Source of the DNA: Thermoanaerobaculia bacterium
GTDB lineage: Bacteria; Acidobacteriota; Thermoanaerobaculia; Multivoradales; JAHEKO01
Assembly (NCBI GenBank): GCA_945787525.1
Contig: CALZJC010000003.1
Location: 4,950-53,494 of the forward strand
DNA length: 48,545 bases
Reading direction: 5' to 3'
A model generated the notes under the pieces. The model ran no database searches. It was given only the letters and a program-made list of their open reading frames with translations, and was not told where the DNA came from. Every line of letters begins with the position of its first letter. The first letter of the stretch is position 1. Of this stretch, positions 12,082 to 48,545 are shown one piece after another. Made by a program: the position numbers and the translations under genes.

Positions 12082-12917
12082 AGGTCGGCACACTGGCGGC
12101 AGAGGCCTCGCGCCGGCTGCCAGTCCGGAAGATCGCGCTGGATTGCTCGCACAGTCCGCTGTCCCAGCCCGGTGGGGTCTGGGTGGAGAGTGGCGGTGGG
12201 CATGCGACAGACGGGGCACCGGTTGTGGGCCGGCCCTGGGCCGGGCAGGCGCGGCTCGGCGGCGAACCCGACGAGTTCGGCATGGCTCGGCCGGATGCCG
12301 CCAAAGAAGCGCCCGAACCAGCGCTCGCCGCTTTCGCCGAGCATCGAGAAGACGCTGAGGAACTCTCGCCGCCGGGCCGCCTCGGCGGCGGCGGGCAGTT
12401 CGCCCCTGGCCAGCAGACGGCCATCGATCGTGGTGTCCCAGAGGGTCTGGTAGCGCCGGCGGAGGAGACTGTCGAGCGCCGCCGAGTCGTCGAGGGTCGG
12501 CAGCTCGGGCTCGAATCCAAACTCCGAGTCCAGCATGTCCGCGACGTGGAGCAGCTCGTGGCGAAGGAAGGGCAGGAGGCGAGCTCGATCGACCAGCGTG
12601 CTCACCCGCAGGCAGAGCAGAAGGGTCGGAGGGCCATCGCCGCGGCGATCGGGCTTGAGGTCGGCGTACTCCTGGCGGGCGTGGACGACCGGGACGAACC
12701 ACCGGCGGCTGAGCTCGTTGAAGGCCGAGTCTCTTCGCTCGGGCCCCTCGATCTCGTAGAGGGGGTCGCGGCGACGGCGGAAACGGCGCCGCGCGGCGAT
12801 CGGTGAGGTGCCGATAGCGAGCAGGACCGAGTCCTCGACCAGACGCGGGTCGAACTCGAGCGGATAGCCGTCGACTGGCGGGTCGGCGGTCGTCGGAGCG
12901 GCCGACGAGATACTCAT
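12054..12917 (-). CDS. HExxH-motif protein with C-terminal CxxC...CxxC zinc ribbon, last gene of the molybdoenzyme operon
   Basis: The real start is ATG 12917 (MSISSAAPTT...), which overlaps the chaperone stop as ATGA. Motifs: LRHELLHVADMLD, and the C-terminal CPVCRMP...CRQCADLY. The upstream part of the 507-aa track ORF is an off-frame overlap. Confidence 0.65.
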   Translation of the reverse strand: MSISSAAPTTADPPVDGYPLEFDPRLVEDSVLLAIGTSPIAARRRFRRRRDPLYEIEGPERRDSAFNELSRRWFVPVVHARQEYADLKPDRRGDGPPTLLLCLRVSTLVDRARLLPFLRHELLHVADMLDSEFGFEPELPTLDDSAALDSLLRRRYQTLWDTTIDGRLLARGELPAAAEAARRREFLSVFSMLGESGERWFGRFFGGIRPSHAELVGFAAEPRLPGPGPAHNRCPVCRMPTATLHPDPTGLGQRTVRAIQRDLPDWQPARGLCRQCADLYAAAPAER

Positions 12918-13741
12918 CTCGGGTCGCCGGGCGTGGCGGCGGACGGACCACGGCGAGCCGCGCCGCCGCCGAGCTGGACCAGCTCGTCGTCGCCCGATCC
13001 GCAAGCCATGGGAACCCCATCGGGCTCGGTCGAGCGAAGCTCGAGGACGTCCGGCCCCAACGGTAGATCGAGCCGCTCGCACTCGACGCGCAGCAGGGCC
13101 TCGCAGAGGCCACCCAGGGCGCCATAGAGCTCGTCGCGCGCCGCCTCCTGGAGGGAGCGGGCGAATGCCCGTCCGAAGCGCGCCAGATGATCGCCCAGGA
13201 ACGTCCGCGCCGCGCTGCGGGTGACCTCGGCCATCTCGTCGTCGCCATGCGCCTGGGCCCAGCACTCCTTGCGCACCAGGAACTCGAGGAACTCGAACTG
13301 GCAAGCGATGTGGTCCGCCCGTTCGTGCCGCGTCCCGCTGGCGCGGAGTCCGAAGGCGGCGTAGGAGCCGGACAGGTCGGCCAGCTCCTGCGCCTGCTGG
13401 AGCAGGGCGCGGTGGCCATACTCGCATTCGTACGGGCAGACGCGGCCGCGCAGGGTGTGGCCAAAGAGCCGCTCGTGGCTCAGGCGGATCTCGCCGAGCC
13501 CGGGATCGGCCAGGGCGCAGAGGCGATCCACCGCGGCGCCGAGCGGCCCCGGCCGGCCCTCCTCCAGGCTGCGGCATGCCTGGCGCAAGGCCGCGCGACC
13601 CTCGACGTCGAAGAAGGTCCCGACCGTGGCCTTGCTGGGGCGGTCGAGACCGAGCTTGAGGGCCCGGTAGAGGACGCCGCGCGCCAGCAGCCGGTCGGTG
13701 GCGTCTTCGGCAGCGACAGATGTCGGAGTTTCGACGGTCAT
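12914..13741 (-). CDS. TorD/NarJ-family private chaperone of a type II DMSO-reductase-family enzyme (delta subunit)
   Basis: 275 aa. Motifs: YRALKLGL..., HERLFGHT...CPYECEYG, ADHIACQFEFLEFL. Lies 9 nt downstream of the beta subunit gene. Confidence 0.8.
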   Translation of the reverse strand: MTVETPTSVAAEDATDRLLARGVLYRALKLGLDRPSKATVGTFFDVEGRAALRQACRSLEEGRPGPLGAAVDRLCALADPGLGEIRLSHERLFGHTLRGRVCPYECEYGHRALLQQAQELADLSGSYAAFGLRASGTRHERADHIACQFEFLEFLVRKECWAQAHGDDEMAEVTRSAARTFLGDHLARFGRAFARSLQEAARDELYGALGGLCEALLRVECERLDLPLGPDVLELRSTEPDGVPMACGSGDDELVQLGGGAARRGPSAATPGDPR

Positions 13742-13750
13742 CGGCGGCCC

Positions 13751-15019
13751 TCAGATCGAGTTGGCGTGGGCGTTGGAGCGCACATAGAGGGGCTCTTCGA
13801 CCGTGGTCCGGAACAGCTCACTGCCGTCTTTACCGAAGGCGATGACTGTGTCGTTGTAGAGGGTCACCGGCCGCCCGCGATACTCCCCTTCGTAGATCAG
13901 CGGCCCCTCTTCGATCTCATAGCGGAAGATGATCCGGTTGTCGCGGCGGAAGAGCTGCAGGACACACAGCAGTTCGCGGTCGGGGTGCTTGTAGCGCTCG
14001 ACCGCCTGCCCGACCCCGGGGCCGAACATCTGCTCGAGGTAGGCGTGCGGTACCCAGCGGGGCGGGATGTAGTAGCCGTTGGGCTGCGTGCCGAGCTGCG
14101 GATAGAGCGGTAGGGCGACCTTCGCCACGTGGACCAGGTAGTAGAGCGGATTCTGGCGATCCTCGGCCCAGGTGCCGTCCTCCGCCAGCCTGGCCAGGCC
14201 CTGGAGGCGGATCTGGCCGATGCACGCCGCCATGCAACGGGTTACCATCGGCACGCCGCCCGACTCGGGATCCGTGCCCTCGACCCGCGGGTAGCAGGCG
14301 ATGCACTTCTCGCTCACCCTGGTGTTGCCGCGGTAGAGGGACTTCTTGTAGGGGCAGGCCTCGACGCACTTGCGGTAGCCGCGGCACTCCTGCTGATCGA
14401 TCAGCACGATGCCGTCCTCGGGCCGCTTGTAGATCGCCTTGCGCGGGCAGGCTGCCAGGCAGCCGGGGTAGCTACAGTGGTTGCAGATCCGCGCCAGATA
14501 GAAGAACCAGGTGTCGTGCACCGGCAGCTCGACGCCCTTCGGGTCCAGGCGGTCGCGGACGCCGGGCTTGCCCAGCGGGTTGTCCTCGTAGATATTGGGC
14601 GAGTTCCACTCTTCATCGGTCGGCAGATAGCCCAGGACACGCGAGCTCTCGGGATCGAAATGGGTCTCGGCCGCCTCGAAGATCGTCTTGCCCTTGAACT
14701 CCCCGTAGGGTCCGAACCGTTGGTCGAGATCGGCGCCCTGCCAGATCTGCCCGTCGGGGTCGGCCTCCTGGAGCTGGCGCAGGATCTTGACGTCCCAAGA
14801 CTGCGGATAGCCGCCGTAGGGCTTGGTCTCGACGTTTGCCCACCACATGTGCTCCTGGCCCTTGCTGAAGGTCCAGGTCGATTTGCAGGCCATGGTGCAG
14901 CTCTGGCAGGCGATGCAGCGGTTGATGTTGAAGACGAAGGCGAACTGGCGTTCGGGGAAGCGCGCCTCGTACGGGTACGCCATCTCCCGTCCCAGCTGCC
15001 AGTTTCCTACTTTTGGCAT
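13751..15019 (-). CDS. Molybdoenzyme iron-sulfur (beta) subunit, NarH/NxrB-like
   Basis: 422 aa. Cys clusters CIACQSCTMAC, CNHCSYPGCLAACP, CRGYRKCVEACP and CIACYPR. N-terminus MPKVGNWQLGREMAYPYE...FAFVFNINRC. AGGAGGG SD 6 nt upstream. Confidence 0.9.
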   Translation of the reverse strand: MPKVGNWQLGREMAYPYEARFPERQFAFVFNINRCIACQSCTMACKSTWTFSKGQEHMWWANVETKPYGGYPQSWDVKILRQLQEADPDGQIWQGADLDQRFGPYGEFKGKTIFEAAETHFDPESSRVLGYLPTDEEWNSPNIYEDNPLGKPGVRDRLDPKGVELPVHDTWFFYLARICNHCSYPGCLAACPRKAIYKRPEDGIVLIDQQECRGYRKCVEACPYKKSLYRGNTRVSEKCIACYPRVEGTDPESGGVPMVTRCMAACIGQIRLQGLARLAEDGTWAEDRQNPLYYLVHVAKVALPLYPQLGTQPNGYYIPPRWVPHAYLEQMFGPGVGQAVERYKHPDRELLCVLQLFRRDNRIIFRYEIEEGPLIYEGEYRGRPVTLYNDTVIAFGKDGSELFRTTVEEPLYVRSNAHANSI

Positions 15020-15369
15020 CGTTCGCCCTCCTGTCGCTCGTCACTCGGTCGTGACGCGGTGCGGGAACCGATCCGGACCAGGCCGGCGGGCGCCGAGTCG
15101 CGGACGACGAACCGTACCCGCCCCCACAGCTCGAGACTCTCGTCGATGATGCGCCGGACCTCTTCTTCGCCGAGCATCCGGTAGGCGCGGTGCGCGCCGG
15201 CGTAGCGCGGCCGCCGGAACATCTCCAGCAGACGCTCGCCGGTGAAGCCCAGCGCCGCGAACTCGTCGGCGAAGGTGGCCGCCATCTGGCGCGTCGAGTC
15301 GAGGTCGCCGGGGATGGAGACCCCCACCAGCTCGTGCGGGTCGGCGGGATCGGGATCGCGGTACGGCAT
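15007..15369 (-). CDS. Unassigned 120-aa protein encoded between the alpha and beta subunit genes
   Basis: ATG 15369 is preceded by GAGGAG and lies 14 nt after the alpha stop. The 3' end overlaps the beta start by 13 nt. No signal peptide or cofactor motif. Confidence 0.55.
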   Translation of the reverse strand: MPYRDPDPADPHELVGVSIPGDLDSTRQMAATFADEFAALGFTGERLLEMFRRPRYAGAHRAYRMLGEEEVRRIIDESLELWGRVRFVVRDSAPAGLVRIGSRTASRPSDERQEGERCQK

Positions 15370-15382
15370 GGTTCTCCTCGCC

Positions 15383-18300
15383 TCAGGCCTTGCGCACGCG
15401 GGTGATCTCGCCTGCCAGGTAGCTGCGCATGAAGTCGTTCTCGTTGTCCGGGGTGTAGCCGGTGGTCGCCGGCTGCCACATCCCCTGGCCGCCCATGCCG
15501 CCGTCCTCGGCCTTGGTCACCCGCACCAGGGTCTCCTTGGGGACGGTGTTGAGGGCGTGGTTGTCGGCCTCGCCGCCAAAGATGAACTTCATGAACACCT
15601 TCGACTTGTGAAACAGGGTGTCGGTCTGGTGCATCGGCATGTGCCAGTTGCGGGTGATCGACTGCTGCGAGCCGTAGCGCAGGTTGGCCTGGTAGCCGGT
15701 GTTCTCCGACAGGGCGCGGCCGTCGGGCCGGCTCTCGTGCGCCCGGACGCTCTTCTCGGTGGCGATGAACGGCGCGTGCTTCATCATCACGATGTTGTAC
15801 GGGTAGGCGTGGTTGTACTTGACCCGCAGCATGCAGCGCGCCACGCGGTAGAAGAACTCGTCCGGTTTGGCACCCAGGTAGGGCCGGTCGGCCGGGTTGG
15901 CGTCGACGTAGACGTAGTCGCCGTCGTTGATGCCCAGATCGCGGGCGGCCTGGGGGTTGACGTGCAGCTGGTGCTCGCCGACCGAGGGGGCGCGCTTGTC
16001 GAGCCGGTAGGGGTCGCCGAAGTTGGAGTCGTAGAGCATGTGCCAGTCGACGTTGGACCAGCCGCTGTGAACCCGGTGCCGGGTCTTGGGCGTCAGGCAG
16101 TAGAACTGGAGGCCCTTCTCCCAAAGAAAGTTCTTGGTTGTCTTGACCCTCTTCCAGGGCATCTTGATGTTGCGCACGGTGCGCTCGTCCCAATGCTCCG
16201 CGTCGGCCGGCAGGCCATAGTCTTCGGGGCGGACGAAGGGGTTGGAGCTGACGATGACGTTGGGCAGATAGGGCGTCGCCTCGGGGCCCTCGCGGTGGAC
16301 GATGAAGTTCTCGCCGTACTCGATCGCCTCCGGCACGTCGGTGTAGGCGTGCAGGCGGCCGGTGTCGGTGTGGAACGGCTCGTTGTCGTGGATCTGCTCG
16401 TAGAACGGGATCCGCGGGTAGGTACGGAAGTTCATCAGCGCGCCGCCCGGAGGGCCGTACTTGCCGGCCATCAGGTCCTCGACCCGGTAGCCGCTGGTGG
16501 TGGTCGAGCTGTCGAGCAGCCGCTGCAGGTAGATGTCCCGGCGCCCCTCGTGCTCGAACTTGAATGCTTTCTCGAACCGGTCGTCGCCGGTCACCCGGCC
16601 CAGGGCGCGGCCGATACCGGCCAGGATCGCCAGGTCGTCCTTGCTGTCGAAGACCGGCTGGATGCCCCCTTTCCAGGCCTGCAGAAAGGGGTTCGAGCAG
16701 CTGGCGGTGACCTCCAGGTCCTCGAACTCGAGCCACGAGTTCGCCGGCAGGGCGAGGTCTGCATACTCGATCGAGGCCGTCATCTGGATGTCGAACGAGA
16801 CGATCATCTCGATGTTGGGATTGACGTTCTTGATCATGCCGTAGGCCCACTTGGCGTTGTTGATCAGTGACGTTGTTGAAGATGATCGACTTGGTCGGGG
16901 TCGGCATGTGGCTGGCGCCGGTAAAGCAGCGCCGGCCGAACCTGGGGGTGTCGACAATCAGCGCCTGGTCGCCGTGGTTCCAGTAGGCGGGCTCCTCGTC
17001 CTTGGTGTAGGCGTGGGCGCGAATATCCTTGCCGTGGGTCGCGGGATCGAGGTCCAGATCGAACGGATCCTCGGCCACCCAGCCCTTGAAGCCGGGGCCG
17101 GTCCACGGTGAGCCCTGAAAGAGCGCCGCCTTGTAGTTACCGGCCCAGGTGTGGCAACCAGCGCCCGGCTTGCCGATGTTGCCGGTGAGCATCAGCGGCA
17201 GGTAGGCGGCGCGGTTCATCTCGGTGGCGTGGAACCAGTGGTTGATTCCCTCGCCCTGGTGGATCGCCACCGGGGCCATGGTGGCGATGTCCTCGGCCAG
17301 CCGTTCCACCATCTGCCGCGGGCAGCTGGTGATGTCGCAGACCGTGTCGAGGTCGTAGTCCTTCAGGTGGGTCTGGTAGAGAGTCCACAGGGTCGAGCAG
17401 CGGGCGGTGTGGCCGTTGGCCAGGCGGACATCGAAGCTTCCCCCAAGGGCCGGGGCGAGGCCCGTGGCCGTCATCGCCCCGCCCACGTCGTCGCGGTTTA
17501 GCGCCCGCGGGCGGCCTTCGGTCTCGTCCCAGATGACGTAGTCGCCCAGTTGGGCGTGCTGCTCGGCGGTCAGGCCCTGGATCTTCATCGACGGGCCTTC
17601 GGGGTCGAGTTCCGTGCGATAGTCCGGGAAGACCTCGTGCGCCCTGAGCCGCCGCAGGTTGTCGTGCCGCACGAGCAGCGGAAAGTCGGTGAAGGTCTTG
17701 ACGAACTCCTCGTCGTACGAGCCCTTCTCGATCATCAGCCGGGTGATGCCGAGCCACAGAGCGGTGTCGGTCGCCGGCCGGATGGGGATCCAGTAGTCGG
17801 CTTTGGTCGAGGGCGGCCCGTACTCGGGCGCGATCACCACGATCTTGCCGCCCCGCTCCATGCACTCGATGAACCAGTGGGAATCGGTGAGCTTGTTCTC
17901 CACCAGGTTCTTGCCGTCCATGATGATCAGCTTCGAGTAGCGCAGGTCGTTGAAGTCGCAATCCGAGGCCTGGAGGCCGTGCACCCAGGGGTGGCCGGGG
18001 GCCTGGTCGCCGTGCCAGGTGTAGTTGGACCAGGTGCGGCCGGCGCGGGCCTTGTCGGGTCCGACGCCGCGGGTCTTGGCGTCGAGCAGGGCGAGCGAGT
18101 TGCACAGGCGATACATGCCGTACTTGCCCAGCACCCCCAGCAGCCCCATGCCGCCGCGCATCTTGATCGTGCGCGTCCCGGCCCCACCCATCGCCTCGAC
18201 CATCTCCGGCTGGTAGCCCTGGGCGAGGAGGCGCTCGGCGCCCTCCTCGCCGCTGTAGCGCTTGGAGATGCTCTCGAGAGCCAGGGCCATCTTCTGGAAC

Positions 18301-18848
18301 GCGTCGTCCCAGGAGATCTGGATGAACTCGTCGTCGCCTCGGCTGTCGAACTTGTATTTGCTCTTGAGCTCGGGTGTCAGCTCGGGGAAACCGGCTTCGG
18401 CCCAGGCTTTCCAGCCGCGCCGCACGATCGGGTGGCGCAGCCGGTAGGGCCCGTAGATCACGCGGTGAAAGGTGTAACCCTTGGCGCACTGGCGGGGGTT
18501 CCAGTTGACGCTGGCGTGGTTGCCGTAGAGGTCGGCGTAGTCCTGGTAGTCGTAGGTCGAGCCGCTCCTGACGACGATGCCGTTTCTTACGTAGGCGCGA
18601 ATACGGCAGGCGTGGGTGTCGTTGGGCGAGCAGACCCAGTCGAAGGTGCGGTCGTAGCGATACTGGTCGTGGTAGATCGTTTCCCAGTCCCGCCGCACCG
18701 CGCGCGAGAGGGGGTTGTCGTTCGGATCGAGGGGCTCGAGGAACGTGCAGGCGCCCTCGAGACCGATCACGGCGGCACCGACGCCGCCGCCGAGGAACTT
18801 CATGAACAGCCGGCGATCGATCGAGGAGCGCAGCGGTTCTGTCGTCAT
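15383..18848 (-). pseudogene. Molybdopterin catalytic (alpha) subunit, Tat-exported, NXR/type II DMSO-reductase family; split by a 1-nt frameshift near 16868
   Basis: ATG 18848 with a GAAGGAGG SD. Twin-arginine motif SIDRRLFMKFLG. Motifs CSPNDTHACR and SNYTWHGDQAPGHP. The N-part 18848..16869 (660 codons) reads ...TKSIIFNNV. The C-part 16867..15383 (494 aa) continues LINNAKWAYGMIKNV... in the +1 frame. Joined length is about 1154 aa. Confidence 0.85.
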
Positions 18849-18862
18849 CTCATCTGCCTCCT

Positions 18863-20527
18863 TCAGGGAGCCAGTACCAGTTCTTGCCAGATGGTCACCG
18901 ACTTCTTGCCGTCGCGATCGCCGGCGCTGCCGTCCCACACCGCGAAGGCCACGGCGAGCTTCTGGCCCGCCACCAACGACGTCGCACCGGCGCCGCCGCG
19001 CTCCAACGACCGGCGGAAGAGCACCCGATACGAGCCGGTGGCCCAGCTGCCGGTGGAGCCGACCGCCAGATCCGCCGCGGGGCGCGCCCGCAGGGTGCCG
19101 AATCCCTCGGCGGTCAGGTCCTCGACGGACCGTTTTCCGGTGGGGTCGGAGACCACGTTACCGGCGCCCCAGGCGGTCACATAGGTCGGATCCGATTCCA
19201 GGGTCAGGGCGTCGCGGGTCGGCTGCTCCAGCGGCGAGCGCAGGAAGTTGGGATAGGAGTCGATGCCCATGTTGGGGTAGACCTTGTCGAGGTCCTGGTA
19301 GGCCGGCCGCAGGTCGGCCTGGCGCTCGGACTTCCACATCCAGATGTTCACCCCACCACCCGGTTGGCCCATGGCGAAGAACGGCGGATCCGCAGCCCGG
19401 GCAAGTTGCACCGCGGCCGCGTCGCGAAAGTCCTGCGGCCGGATGACCGTGTGGTCCCAGGTCGAGTCCGGCCAGACGAGCAGCACAGCCAGCTCCTCGC
19501 CATCGTGCGCCGCCATGACCGTCAGCTCCTCGGGTCGGTTGCCGCGCCACCACAGCGGCATCAGATGGAGCGAGACCGGCTCGATCGCCCTCCAGCCGCC
19601 GGCGTCCGGGTGGTCTGGCAGCTCATCGACGCGGCTCGCCACCACCCGGTAGCGCTTCATCTCCACCGTCTCGCGCTGCTCCGGACTCGACATCGAGAGC
19701 ACCAACCGGGTCAGATGCCAGGCGTCATCGCCGTGGAGATAGGGGCTGGACGGCATGGGCGAGCCGGGCAAGCCTGCGACGATCCGCCGGTAGACCTCTG
19801 CGGGCTCGGGCGTGCCCTTGAACACCCCCGCCGTCAGGTCGCGGGGCCGGGTCGGGCGACCCTGCGAGTCGAACTGCTCCTGCGCTCCATCACCACGGCC
19901 GGTCTCGCCGTGGCAGGGGGCGCATCCCTGGCCGAACAGCTCGCGCGCTCGCGCCTCGCCGGCGGGTGTCTCGGTCGGCATGGCGGCGGTTCGGATGATT
20001 CCCTTGCCGGTTCCGTACCGCTTCGTCGGCTCCTCCGGTCCGGGCACCTCGAGCGGGCGGCTGGACATGGACTTGATGTAGTGCACCAGCCCCCAGCGAT
20101 CCTCCTCGGGCAGATGCGCCCAGGAGGGCATGGCCGAACCCGGCATGCCGCGGGAGATCGTCCGGTAGAGGTCCTCGTCGGTGGGCACCCCCTCCCAGGT
20201 GGAGACCAGGCGATACTGACCGCGGGTGAAATCGCGAGGTTTGGGGTAGAGGAGGTATGCCGCCTCTCCTTGGCCGTCTCCCAGCATCCCGTGGCAGGCC
20301 TGGCACTGCTTCTCATAGACCGCCTGGCCGCGGCGCAGCAAGCTCGGCGACGTGGCGAGCGCTCGAGTCGGCTGGATCGACGCCTGGATCTCGCCGGTAG
20401 AGAGCTCGGTGGGCACCTGACTGCAGCCGCCCAGAGTCAGCCCGACCGATGCCGCGATCGCCACCCGAACGAGTCCCGGCCAGCGCCACCCGAGAGGTTG
20501 CACCCACAGCGGAACCTTGCGGCCCAT
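18863..20527 (-). CDS. Gamma subunit: probable lipoprotein, two c-type heme domains fused to an EB_dh-type (heme b) domain
   Basis: 554 aa. Possible signal/lipobox LTLGGCSQ. CQACHG and CAPCHG, each followed by a G(M/L)PGSxMP Met-ligand motif. The C-terminal half has EB_dh signatures (DAAAVQLA..., VNIWMWK, AVAFAVWDGSAGDRDGKKSVTIWQ). Confidence 0.8.
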   Translation of the reverse strand: MGRKVPLWVQPLGWRWPGLVRVAIAASVGLTLGGCSQVPTELSTGEIQASIQPTRALATSPSLLRRGQAVYEKQCQACHGMLGDGQGEAAYLLYPKPRDFTRGQYRLVSTWEGVPTDEDLYRTISRGMPGSAMPSWAHLPEEDRWGLVHYIKSMSSRPLEVPGPEEPTKRYGTGKGIIRTAAMPTETPAGEARARELFGQGCAPCHGETGRGDGAQEQFDSQGRPTRPRDLTAGVFKGTPEPAEVYRRIVAGLPGSPMPSSPYLHGDDAWHLTRLVLSMSSPEQRETVEMKRYRVVASRVDELPDHPDAGGWRAIEPVSLHLMPLWWRGNRPEELTVMAAHDGEELAVLLVWPDSTWDHTVIRPQDFRDAAAVQLARAADPPFFAMGQPGGGVNIWMWKSERQADLRPAYQDLDKVYPNMGIDSYPNFLRSPLEQPTRDALTLESDPTYVTAWGAGNVVSDPTGKRSVEDLTAEGFGTLRARPAADLAVGSTGSWATGSYRVLFRRSLERGGAGATSLVAGQKLAVAFAVWDGSAGDRDGKKSVTIWQELVLAP

Positions 20528-21444: not shown

Positions 21445-21581
21445 GCCGGTCTCCAGCGTAGCAGAGGCGAGAGAGGCGCTCGTCTGGAGCGGTCGGCCGA
21501 GGAGCCCTTGCGGAACCGGTCTCCACCCTGGTCAGATCCCGCCGGGGGACAGCGCCGTAATTACCTGAGGAGAGCCAGACC

Positions 21582-22544
21582 GTGCACCGAGTCCCCCACC
21601 TGTTCCTGGCGCTTGTCGGCCTGTTGGCGGCGGGCACGCTGACCACCACGAGGGCGACGGCCGAGGAAGAGCCGCCGCCGGGCGTCGAGCAGCTGCTGCC
21701 GCGGGGTCGCATCGCGGCGGTCCTCGAGCCGCAGTTCGTGCCCGCCGCCGAGGCCGACCTGCCCGACGACGCCTGGGTGCTCGGCGTCGTCATCGACGGC
21801 ATCGCCAAGGCCTATAGCCTGAACCTGTTGAACCGCCACGAGGTGGTCAACGACCGGACCGGCGAGACCGCCTACGCGGCGGTCTGGTGACCGCTGGCCA
21901 ACACGGCCGTCGTGTACGGCCGAGAATACGGCGATCGGGAGCTCAACTTCGAGGCCTCGGGGGCGCTCTGGCAGGCGTCGCTGGTGATGCGTGACCGGGA
22001 GACCGACAGCTGGTGGTCGATCATGACCTCCAAGGCCATCGGCGGCGAGCTGCACGGCGCCGACCTGGTCGAGATGCCCTATGGGGAGAAGCGCACCTGG
22101 GGCGATTGGCGGGCGCGCTATCCCGACAGCATGGTGCTGTCGGTGGAGGGCAGCCAGCACGAAGCGCACAGCCCCTATGACGAGTACTTCGCCAACGACA
22201 ACACGTTCCGCGATCTGGAGATCGCCGACCGGCGGCTCGGGCCCAAGACGCCGGTCTTCAGCTTCTTTCTCGACGGCAAGCCGTATGCGGTGCCGCACGC
22301 CGCCGTCGAGGGTCGGCGACTGTTCGAGGTCGGTGACGTCAGGCTGTTGTTCTTTCGCCAGCCCGGCGCCGAGCTGTTCGCCTCGACGCGGGCCTGGATC
22401 GCACCACCGGAGGCGGGCGGCACCGTCGAGGCACTGCCGGCCGACGATGAGCTGGAGGCCGCCGGCTTCGAGGTGCTGGGCGGTATCGATACGTTCTGGT
22501 ACACCTGGGCCGCGGTCAACGAGAGATCCGAGATCCTGCGCTAG
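21582..22544 (+). CDS. DUF3179-family secreted protein with an in-frame TGA (21888-21890) at the family Cys position: candidate selenoprotein or nonsense pseudogene
   Basis: GTG 21582 follows GAGGAG, with a signal-like N-terminus. Track ORFs 21582..21890 and 21912..22544 share a frame and together read ...VVNDRTGETAYAAVW-TGA-PLANTAVVYGREYGDRELNFEASGALWQASLVMRDRETDSWWS. This is colinear with the DUF3179 core (..VTYCPLC..FgvSG.L..snlvmyDreTeSlW). Confidence 0.7.
21904..21922 (+). other. SECIS-like hairpin 13 nt downstream of the DUF3179 TGA
   Basis: A perfect 7-bp stem, cggccgt / acggccg, with loop CGUGU. The loop G/U falls about 22-23 nt after the UGA. Confidence 0.4.
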
Positions 22545-46148: not shown

Positions 46149-48545
46149 TCAGTGGGTCACCACCGGCAGAACCGGCTCGGCGGCGGCCATCGTCGGGGCG
46201 AGGACCGGAGCCGCTCCCAACTCCTTCTCCTCGAGGATCTTCATGGTCTTGGCGACCTCCTGCGGCGTGACCTCGCGCAGCAGTTTGTCGACCTCGCGCA
46301 TGACGCGGGCGAACTTCTGGCCCTCGGCGGCGCTGATCCACTCGAGCTGCAGCCGTTCCGGCCGGATGCCGAGCTTCTCCATCTGGGACCAGACCTTCTC
46401 CACCCGCCGCTGGGTCCAGGTCACGGCGTCGATGTAGTGGCAGTCGGAGAAGTGGCAGCCGGAGACCAGCACCAGCGGCGCTCCCTGGCGGAAGGCGCGC
46501 CAGATGAACCGCTGGTCGACGCGGCCGCTGCACATGGTGCGGATCAGCCGCACCGTTGGCGGGTACTGGAGCCGCGACGTGCCAGCGGTGTCGCCGCCGG
46601 CGTACGAGCACCAGTTGCAGGCGAACGCGACGACCTTCTCCATCGGCTTGTCGGCCAGGATGGCGTCGATCTGCGACACCACCTGCTGGTCCTCGAAGTG
46701 ACGCATGGTGATGGCGTCGAACGGGCACTCTGCGGCGCAGGTGCCGCAGCCGGCGCAGGCGGCCTCGATAAAGAACGGGTCCTGCTTGAGCTTTTTGTTC
46801 GCCTCCTCGATGGCGTTGAAGGGGCAGACCTGCGCGCAGATCTTGCACTGGGCGCAGAGCTCGGGGTTGAGCACTGCGGTGATCGCCTCGATCTTCACCT
46901 CGCCGGCACCCAGCAGGTTGCCGGCGCGGGAAGCGGCGGCGCCGGCCTGGGTGACGCTGTCCTTGACGTCCTTTGGCGCCTCGACGCAGCCGGCGAAGTA
47001 GACGCCGCGGGTCGGCGCGTCCACCGGCTTCAACTTCGGGTGCGCCTCCATGACAAAGCCGTCGGAGGTGTGGGACAGGCTGAGGATCTCGTCGATGGAG
47101 CGCTGGCCGGGCCTGCCGTTGCCGTTGCTGTTGCGCGGCACCAGGCCGACCGCCAGAACCACCATGTCCAGGCGGTGCTCGGCGATCTCGCCGCGCAAAG
47201 TGTCCTCGACGCGGACCACCAGCTCGCCGGTCTCGGCGTCCTGCTCGACTGCACCCGGCAGGCCGCGCACGAAACGCACGCCCTCCTCCCGGCTGCGGCT
47301 GTAGAGATCTTCGAAGCCTTTGCCGAAGGCGCGAATGTCCTGGTGGAAGACCGTCGATCGGCTGTCGGGGTAGTGCTCGGCCAGGAGCAGGGTCTCCTTG
47401 ATCGTGTTCATACAGCAGAAGTTGGAGCAGTAGGGCACGCCGCGGTTGGGCGAGCGCGAGCCGACGCACTGGATGAAGCCGATGCGCTTGGGCACCTCGC
47501 GGTCCGAGGGCCGCACCAGCTCACCCTCGGTGGGCCCGCCGGCGTTGATCAGGCGCTCGAACTCCATCGAGGTGATGACGTCGGGGAAGCGGCAGTAGCC
47601 GTACTCGTCGGTGGCGCGAGGGTCGTAGACGTCCATGCCCGTGGCGACCACGACGCTGCCGATCTCGAGGTCGCGCACCTCGTCGCAGGCGTCGTAGTCG
47701 ATGCACTTCTTGTCGCATACTTCGCGGCACTTGCCGCAGGCGATCGGGTTGAAGCCGAGACAGTTGTCCGAGTCCAGCGTGTAGGTCGCCGGTACCGCCT
47801 GCGGAAACGGCATGTAGATCGCCTTGCGGGTGGCGAGGCCCTCTTGATACTCGTCCGGCAGGGCTACCGGACAGACATCGACGCAGTCACCACAGGCGGT
47901 GCATTCGACCGGGTCGACGTGCTGCGCGCGCCGCCGTATGCGGGCGCGGTAGTTCCCCACGAAGCCGGTGATGTCTTCGACTTCGGAGTTGACCAGGAGC
48001 TCAATGCGGGGATGCCGACCGGCATCCATCATTTTGGGGCCGAGAATTCATATAGAGCAATCCATAGTCGGGAACGTCTTGTCCAACGCCGCCATGATCC
48101 CGCCTATGGATGGCTCCTTTTCGACCAGATAGACCTGATGCCCGCCGTCGGCCAGCTCCAGGGCCGACTGGATCCCGGCCACGCCGCCGCCGATGACCAG
48201 CGCGGCGTCGGTGACCGGGAAGACCTTCTCATCCTGCGGCCGCAGCCGGCGCGCCCGAGCCACGGCGCTGGCCACAAGGTCCTTGGCCTTGCTGGTGGCC
48301 GCCTCCTTGTCGTGCATGTGCACCCAGCTGCAGTGTTCGCGGATGTTGGCCATCTCCATCAGATACTGATTGAGGCCGGCCTCCTCGACGCAGGCGCGAA
48401 AAGTCGGCTCGTGCAGCTTGGGCGAGCACGATGCCACCACCACCCGGTTGAGCTGGTGCTCGGTGATGGCCCGCTTGATCTCGTTCTGGCCCGGGTCGGC
48501 GCAGGTGTAGCGGTTGCGCACCACGGCCGCCACGTCGGGCAGCTC
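46149..48545 (-). CDS. hdrA: Heterodisulfide reductase subunit A-like flavoprotein fused to an MvhD domain; in-frame TGA (48050..48048) at the known HdrA Sec/Cys site; 5' end outside the window
   Basis: Colinear with canonical HdrA: YTCADPGQ..., [71 protein letters not shown], ferredoxin CxxCxxCxxxCP pairs. C-terminal MvhD region: [14 protein letters not shown]...[11 protein letters not shown]...GCHFSDCHY. Track ORFs 48048..48533 and 46149..48032 share a frame. Confidence 0.85.
48010..48027 (-). other. SECIS-like hairpin downstream of the hdrA TGA
   Basis: The minus strand reads GGAUGCC-GGUC-GGCAUCC, a 7-bp stem with a GGUC tetraloop starting 20 nt after the UGA. Confidence 0.55.

Follow-up and report, generated by a model that had tools for sequence, protein, structure and literature searches.

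The locus considered here raises the question of how a TGA codon that interrupts a DUF3179 gene is read: as selenocysteine (Sec), as another amino acid or as a genuine stop, or whether it is instead the mark of a decayed gene or a faulty sequence. The gene lies near the middle of the window, by which we mean the whole 48,545-nucleotide stretch of DNA that was analysed. A first-pass annotation had described one continuous frame broken only by this codon and had proposed a candidate new selenoprotein in which Sec replaces a conserved Cys. Translation of 21582-22544 on the forward strand bears out the single frame, with the TGA at 21888-21890 as its sole internal stop in the context GETAYAAVW, stop, PLANTAVVYGREYGDRELNFEASG. 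GC3 values of 0.93 and 0.89 indicate that both segments of the gene look coding, in a window whose overall G+C content is 69%. For profile and domain scoring of the read-through product, Cys was substituted for the internal stop; the product then scored 178.1 bits against PF11376 (cut-off 27) and covered profile positions 3-288 of 292, while no NCBIfam model matched the protein. Its predicted signal peptide contains no twin-arginine motif. The basic, hydrophobic, small-residue N-terminal pattern of such a peptide recurs in nearly all homologues, some of which have a lipobox Cys, in keeping with the earlier description of the family as secreted. The features of the locus are collected in Table 1.

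Table 1. Coordinates of features at the DUF3179 locus and of a second in-frame TGA in the window; assignments of UGA to selenocysteine are predictions.
Feature	Position	Strand	Remarks
Putative DUF3179 selenoprotein gene	21582..22544	+	GTG start 21582, one in-frame predicted Sec-UGA, TAG 22542-22544, 320 residues
Likely ribosome-binding site GAGGAGAG	21567..21574	+	Shine-Dalgarno-like, 7-9 nt 5' of the GTG; inferred from sequence
Predicted Sec-type signal peptide VHRVPHLFLALVGLLAAGTLTTTRATA	21582..21662	+	Cleavage site inferred
DUF3179 (PF11376) domain	21708..22517	+	Residues 43-312, E 3.5e-52
Predicted Sec-UGA codon (U103)	21888..21890	+	UPLA position 1; corresponds to the first Cys of CPLC/CPLA in homologues
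His86-Glu87 codons, family motif HE(V/I)VND	21837..21842	+	Probable partner of the Sec site
Putative bacterial SECIS-type hairpin	21904..21922	+	Stem 21904-21910 with 21916-21922, 7 bp; loop CGUGU 21911-21915
Second predicted Sec-UGA, HdrA2-MvhD, motif CSIU	48048..48050	-	Gene 46149-48545, cut by the window end

Evidence on the nature of the codon comes from its conservation. The best 80 matching loci were taken from one-genome-per-species bacterial and archaeal assemblies, and the aligned codon was read in the DNA of each. The encoded proteins share 44-78% amino-acid identity with the window protein, and the loci span at least eight phyla, with labels that include Thermoanaerobaculia, Holophagae, Vicinamibacteria, Gemmatimonadota, Krumholzibacteriota and Latescibacterota, as well as KSB1, Calditrichota, Polyangiaceae, Nitrospira and Cytophagia. 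In these 80 genomes the tblastn matches extend across the TGA, and the aligned codon is itself TGA in 79 of them; the remaining locus (L042) has TGC and, together with seven further loci, represents the Cys type of the gene. At the site, homologues of full length (42-56% identity) have the sequence VWCPLAN. The UGA is therefore conserved among orthologues, as is looked for in a Sec codon, and forms a Sec/Cys pair with homologous proteins. In some close relatives the position is taken by Ser, Asp or Gly. The residue three places on is Ala in the window protein and in all 79 Sec-type orthologues (U-P-L-A), and among the 80 closest species representatives Sec is nearly fixed in this UPLA clade. 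The proposals that the TGA replaces the first Cys of a CPLC motif and that the second Cys has become Ala both hold when the protein is aligned with Cys homologues and PF11376 members, and the profile match together with the Cys found at the site in homologues supports a Sec-for-Cys form of DUF3179.

We then considered the sequence that follows the codon, where a perfect 7-bp hairpin had been noticed and suggested to be a SECIS element. Folding recovers the hairpin, which begins 13 nt past the TGA, places its loop at a distance of 20 nt and has an energy of -12.4 kcal/mol when folded alone. In its 66-nt context the z-score is only -1.5, and in DNA of such high G+C content stability alone says little. 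The published constraints on bacterial SECIS (bSECIS) elements are a loop of 3-9 nt, a stem of 4-16 bp, a G among the first two loop positions, a distance of 16-37 nt from the UGA and a minimum free energy of at most -7.5 kcal/mol (the bSECISearch model, quoted in the legend of Fig. 2 in PMC13188914). Compared with these published criteria, the hairpin lies within every limit, having a 5-nt loop that starts with CG, a 7-bp stem, a 20-nt distance and the energy given above. Rfam returned no match in the whole window at gathering thresholds, and a search of 21800-22050 at E up to 10 gave two matches (E 2.5 and E 5) that are unrelated chance hits.

Pairing was counted directly for the named 7-bp structure in the 80-sequence alignment. 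In the register of the hairpin 89.8% of cells are paired, compared with 24-57% in controls with the 3' arm shifted by one, two or three columns. Compensatory changes occur in the stem (G-C to U-A in L061, and C-G to G-C in both L062 and L071), as do several G-U wobbles. The central stem pair, 26-38, is mismatched in 45 of the 80 sequences, namely those in which residue 113 is Asp and not Gly, and because these variants break that pair RNAalifold recovers only three consensus pairs, all of them apical. Covariation within the stem is thin since the stem sequence barely varies.

Stronger evidence than covariation is that synonymous variation is suppressed in the stem. Ala109 is encoded by GCC in 66 of 66 sequences, Tyr112 by TAC in 79 of 80 and Asp113 by GAC in 45 of 45, and the entropy at Thr108 is 0.72 bits; for comparison, the rest of the gene shows median values of 1.53 bits for four-fold sites (with 0.96 as the 5th percentile) and 0.82 for two-fold sites, and the wobble positions of the spacer and loop vary freely. 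The eight Cys-type genes encode the same peptide with mixed codons at the stem sites, such that the four with Ala at position 109 use GCG, GCA, GCG and GCC (GCC in one of four). As the peptide PLANTAVVY(G/D)R is kept in the Cys forms too, part of the nucleotide conservation is driven by the protein. Within the loop, wobble positions 30 and 33 covary (C-G in 42 sequences, G-C in 19, A-C in 14, A-U in 4 and A-A in 1) with a mutual information of 1.07 bits, the next-highest wobble pair having 0.36; this value was reached in 0 of 10000 permutations, a test whose significance is inflated by kinship among the sequences. Hairpin energy shows no clear difference between the Sec forms (median -7.0 kcal/mol) and the eight Cys forms (-2.4 to -11.1 kcal/mol), and as it fails to separate the two at high G+C it was not used as evidence. 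The assignment of the hairpin as a SECIS element is thus supported by its register, the synonymous constraint, the loop covariation and the published criteria.

We put at roughly 90% the probability that 21582-22544 encodes an exported DUF3179 protein whose UGA at codon 103 is decoded as Sec, a reading made from sequence. By the established bacterial mechanism, the hairpin would expose G-U in its apical loop and act as a bacterial SECIS element, which would recruit SelB, loaded with GTP and Sec-tRNA(Sec), to a ribosome that has paused at the UGA, after which translation would proceed to the TAG codon at 22542.

Among the alternatives, the one that fares best, although we regard it as very unlikely, is that the UGA is read as Trp, Cys or Gly through near-cognate decoding or codon reassignment. 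It is left room by the fact that no selA, selB, selC or selD was seen among the roughly 30 ORFs scanned in the window or in a tRNA scan of it. However, TGA serves as an ordinary stop here more often than either of the other stop codons, closing 18 of the 32 genes predicted in the window, which excludes reassignment of the codon. Insertion of a standard amino acid is also at odds with the alignment of the site with Cys and with the conserved SECIS-type hairpin. In addition, the window contains a second TGA at an established Sec position, as the first-pass annotation had pointed out. The HdrA2-MvhD gene reads TMDCSI, TGA, ILGPK, which is a CxxU motif, and its product scores 1103.6 bits against NF040770, reaching the cut-off of 1100; a 7-bp hairpin with the loop GGUC lies at 48010-48027, 20 nt past this TGA. 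HdrA (NF040770) is recorded in a review as a selenoprotein with the motif CxxU. Lastly, in three of the loci (L059, L060 and L066) the DUF3179 orthologue has a tRNA-SeC gene less than 3 kb away.

Less probable again is that the UGA is a true stop, with a 102-aa N-terminal protein followed by a separate 210-aa protein that starts at the in-frame GTG at 21912. Gene callers do report the 210-aa ORF (P0001) and dozens of fragments like it: most protein-database matches at 53-82% identity are 204-226 aa long and begin just after the TGA, and many 50%-identity cluster representatives begin at PF11376 profile position 105. Against this, the DUF3179 domain and its predicted fold are continuous over the site, and the Cys homologues are single chains. 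The restart codon would moreover lie inside the SECIS loop with no ribosome-binding site of its own, and the 210-aa product would be without a signal peptide. We consider that the database entry for the window protein, a C-terminal fragment like those of dozens of its orthologues, reflects the splitting of DUF3179 selenoprotein genes by gene callers, with the consequence that selenoproteomes are undercounted in the annotation of genomes like this one from the Thermoanaerobaculia.

The first-pass annotation had itself raised the possibility of a pseudogene formed by a one-step nonsense mutation of TGC or TGT to TGA. A single base change would suffice, and an apparent frameshift in the Mo-enzyme alpha subunit gene indicates that damaged or mis-assembled genes occur in this window. 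We nevertheless treat a pseudogene as excluded, and rate it as extremely improbable, because 79 of 80 orthologues, drawn from separate species and several phyla, share the TGA; these loci differ at 22-56% of residues and so are not copies of a single contaminant. The gene also has no other lesion, and its coding-type GC3 in both halves, its full-length Pfam alignment and the synonymous constraint on the downstream hairpin all speak against decay. A sequencing or assembly error, for which one could cite the metagenome-assembled appearance of the contig and a probable indel near 16,860-16,880, is just as improbable given that the same codon recurs in independent assemblies of 79 other genomes.

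To place the Sec site within its family, we examined the motif more widely. With E up to 1e-3, a PF11376 profile search identified 11,463 representative clusters (50% identity). The motif was read in 133 Cys-bearing hmmsearch alignment rows, which are domain hits among the retrieved relatives, and is CxxC in 83, CxxA in 43 and CxxT in 5. The CPLC core given for DUF3179 in the first-pass annotation thus describes the family as a whole correctly, and the clade of the window protein constitutes a CPLA/UPLA branch of it. The window protein contains no Cys, and Sec103 is preceded by the motif HEVVND, with a His-Glu pair located 17 residues upstream. Of the 80 Sec-type genes, 79 encode this His and all 80 the Glu; HE is also found in 114 of the 133 Cys-bearing rows, and is degenerate or lost in the close relatives whose Sec/Cys site is occupied by Ser, Asp or Gly. 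An AlphaFold2 model of the Cys homologue P0018 (56% identity; pLDDT 95.3, pTM 0.91) has strands at 64-69 and 72-79 that are hairpin-like around Gly70-Gly71, a register that would set His62 opposite Cys79, the equivalents of His86 and Sec103. From this model and the shared conservation, His86-Glu87 probably faces Sec103.

The fold itself offered few leads. A sequence search of the PDB gave 0 matches at E up to 1, and a Foldseek search of the PDB with the P0018 model gave no match at E up to 1e-3; the best partial matches, all weak, are to NirD or Rieske-like folds and comprise 3c0d_C (probability 0.63), 4aiv and 6zgp. Our literature search found no publication on DUF3179 function. The gene neighbourhood was likewise uninformative: no neighbour of the DUF3179 gene is widely conserved among 81 loci. 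The SDR and NUDIX neighbours seen in the window are shared by L001 and L005 alone, an ECF sigma/anti-sigma pair turns up in no more than 7-10 related loci, and Cys-type DUF3179 genes adjoin carA or carB in three loci. As the neighbours are not conserved, they were not used to predict function.

With respect to function, we favour an oxidoreductase over its main rival, a metal-binding protein. Our tentative proposal, to which we give slightly less than even odds, is that the protein acts in the periplasm as a selenol-based oxidoreductase, with its Sec activated by the His-Glu pair and recycled by an external TlpA-like thioredoxin. Following export by its Sec-type signal peptide, the protein would have Sec103 (W-U-P-L-A) as its only redox-capable residue. 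An intramolecular selenenylsulfide is impossible given that the protein has no other Cys, and a selenenic or selenenylsulfide intermediate would be reduced by the external thioredoxin in place of a resolving Cys within the protein. A redox role is favoured by repeated domain fusions in relatives: of 20 long representatives, 9 have DUF3179 joined to an N-terminal AhpC-TSA/Redoxin domain, the fusions being found in CPLC-type relatives and not in the UPLA clade. Several of the fused domains show WCPFC or WCPIC, a TlpA-like motif, and DUF3179 occurs twice in one representative. The joint occurrence of HE with Cys or Sec at the site points the same way.

The rival reading, which we judge unlikely, is that Sec serves as a metal ligand (for instance for Cu, Fe, Zn or Hg, with His86, Glu87 and Asp91) in a periplasmic metal-binding or metal-handling protein. 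CPLC is the commonest motif of the family and HExxND lies 17 residues upstream of it, a spacing that recalls metal-binding loops; the partial fold matches to NirD and Rieske-like proteins point in the same direction, as does the fusion of one DUF3179 relative to an ArsP-type permease. However, the UPLA clade offers a single soft ligand, and the domain to which relatives are repeatedly fused is a TlpA-like thioredoxin, as is typical of thiol-redox enzymes. Furthermore, most bacterial selenoproteins use Sec for redox catalysis.

Extending the oxidoreductase proposal to the whole clade leads to a more speculative suggestion, on balance somewhat unlikely, that the UPLA proteins may form a distinct, almost obligately selenium-dependent periplasmic enzyme with a lone Sec, His-Glu activation and no resolving Cys. 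The clade is spread over Acidobacteriota and several candidate phyla, and its fold has no solved relative. If the suggestion were true, it would represent new selenoenzyme chemistry recycled by TlpA-like thioredoxins, going beyond a UxxC-type redox protein.

In one respect the first-pass annotation went too far, as the selenoprotein is not of a new kind. Reviews from 2022 and 2026 (PMC9312934, PMC13188914) include DUF3179 (PF11376), with the motif UxxC/T, among the selenoprotein families of prokaryotes, and for this both cite the paper of Zhang and Gladyshev (2007, NAR 35:4952) on the Olavius symbiont metagenome. NCBI, too, names two of the relatives retrieved here 'DUF3179 domain-containing (seleno)protein'. 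The gene, mis-called by gene callers, adds a new member to an established selenoprotein family, and in this sense the biology adds little to what has been catalogued. What is added is the UxxA motif with a lone Sec, the observation that Sec is nearly fixed across phyla, the His-Glu pair as its probable partner, the fusion of relatives to thioredoxin domains and the lack of a solved structural relative. These additions could guide a first biochemical test of a large, uncharacterised family of exported proteins.

Compared with the listed family, the window protein has the same Pfam domain, Sec at the first position of the motif (W-U-P-L-A as against W/Y-C-P-L-C/A/T), Cys-containing homologues and a SECIS hairpin just downstream. 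It departs from the UxxC/T motif of the reviews in that it and the 79 Sec-type orthologues are UPLA, and in that it is without any further Cys; UPLA is a variant of the motif and no ground for exclusion from the Pfam family. The HdrA selenoprotein offers a parallel within the same genome, where a TGA at a documented Sec position is again followed by a hairpin, although HdrA is an unrelated cytoplasmic flavo-iron-sulfur protein and the sequence of its hairpin is different.

The hairpin resembles the bSECIS model in its location in the coding region just past the UGA and in its small loop with a G followed by a U, and differs from it in giving no Rfam match and in the central pair that is mismatched in 45 of 80 orthologues. 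In the E. coli fdhF SECIS, the apical loop is GGUC with an exposed G23 and U24; the loop described here, N1-G-U-N2, in which N1 and N2 covary as C-G, G-C and A-U, would resemble this G-G-U-C arrangement.

As a functional parallel, Neisseria PilB/MsrAB is a periplasmic thiol-redox enzyme fused to TlpA-like thioredoxin domains. DUF3179 relatives with an N-terminal AhpC-TSA/Redoxin domain of the WCPFC type are alike in architecture, and the window protein is alike in being exported and in having a single catalytic-type Cys/Sec. DUF3179 is unrelated to Msr enzymes in both sequence and fold, and the window protein differs further in having neither a thioredoxin domain nor an adjoining thioredoxin gene.

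In the 80-sequence nucleotide alignment A2, which spans the selenocysteine UGA of the DUF3179 genes and the hairpin that follows it, columns 30 and 33 (window positions 21911 and 21914) correspond to the wobble positions of both Val codons in the SECIS loop. These columns covary strictly, with C/G in 42 sequences, G/C in 19, and A together with C, U or A in the remaining 19. The covariation could reflect either a pair between the two variable bases, N1 and N2, across an exposed G-U, or pairing of the column 30 purine with U34 to leave a G-U-N triloop.

Genes surrounding the orthologous selenoprotein genes were also compared. In three related loci, one of which is labelled KSB1, a tRNA-SeC gene is found 0.1-2.2 kb downstream of the DUF3179 gene, an arrangement that the three may share by common inheritance. 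Separately, seven loci carry three ORFs just upstream of, and divergent from, the selenoprotein gene. Two of them, assigned by eye from sequence, encode an ECF-type sigma factor and a zf-HC2-like anti-sigma factor, and the remaining one is also a conserved ORF. Members of the sigma-factor cluster are present in 10 loci, the additional three being L035, L043 and L067. The Cys-type DUF3179 genes of L081, L082 and L085 directly follow carA, with a signal peptidase S26 gene upstream, and in L081 the gene is sandwiched between carA and carB.

Features of the window and of loci containing DUF3179 genes (L-numbers)
Feature	Coordinates	Strand	Remarks
Mo-enzyme operon	window 12914-20527	-	
Molybdopterin alpha subunit	window, about 15383-18840	-	two reading frames, break near 16,860-16,880
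HdrA2-MvhD fusion gene	window 46149-48545	-	cut by window end; NF040770 profile
In-frame TGA of HdrA2-MvhD	window 48048-48050	-	TMDCSI*ILGPK
Hairpin of HdrA2-MvhD	window 48010-48027	-	7 bp, GGAUGCC-GGUC-GGCAUCC, 20 nt downstream of TGA
tRNA-SeC, anticodon TCA	L059 6867-6961	-	downstream of DUF3179 selenoprotein gene
tRNA-SeC, anticodon TCA	L060 9140-9236	-	downstream of DUF3179 selenoprotein gene
tRNA-SeC, anticodon TCA	L066 8576-8672	-	downstream of DUF3179 selenoprotein gene
Divergent ORF trio	about 3000-5900 in L055, L059, L060, L062, L065, L066, L080	-	by eye
Cys-type DUF3179 neighbourhoods	L081 4824-10300; L082 4876-7017; L085 1853-4005		

Among homologues of the CPLC type, an AhpC-TSA/Redoxin domain recurs N-terminal to DUF3179 (proteins P0128, P0206, P0232, P0233, P0234, P0242, P0249, P0260 and P0269). 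This domain is TlpA-like, and bears a WCPFC or WCPIC motif in P0206, P0232, P0234 and P0249. Other fusion partners, each seen in a single protein, are an ArsP-type permease in P0201, a VTT domain in P0268 and a VWA domain in P0250. Five further proteins (P0124, P0127, P0129, P0131 and P0132) are close relatives, with E-values of 1e-90 to 1e-102 against the profile, that have Ser, Asp or Gly at the Sec/Cys site (about residue 100) and have also lost the upstream His-Glu pair. These may be paralogues that lack catalytic activity or serve a different function.

A molybdoenzyme operon lies immediately upstream of the DUF3179 gene in the window. It encodes a NarJ-like chaperone together with alpha (Mo), beta (4Fe-4S) and gamma subunits, of which the gamma subunit combines a cytochrome c domain with an ethylbenzene-dehydrogenase-type (EB_dh) domain. 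Neighbourhood comparison showed that its position beside DUF3179 is not conserved in other genomes. The N-terminal part of the alpha subunit, which carries the Tat signal RRLFMKFLGGG, extends to ...TKSIIFNNV, and the C-terminal part resumes in a different frame as SLINNAKWAYGMIKN... This break looks like a frameshift, which could be an assembly indel, the mark of a pseudogene, or a programmed shift. The operon resembles those of type II DMSO-reductase-family enzymes. The second TGA-containing gene of the window encodes an HdrA2-MvhD fusion whose product scored 1103.6 bits on the NF040770 profile against a cut-off of 1100, and its in-frame TGA falls at the documented CxxU selenocysteine site.
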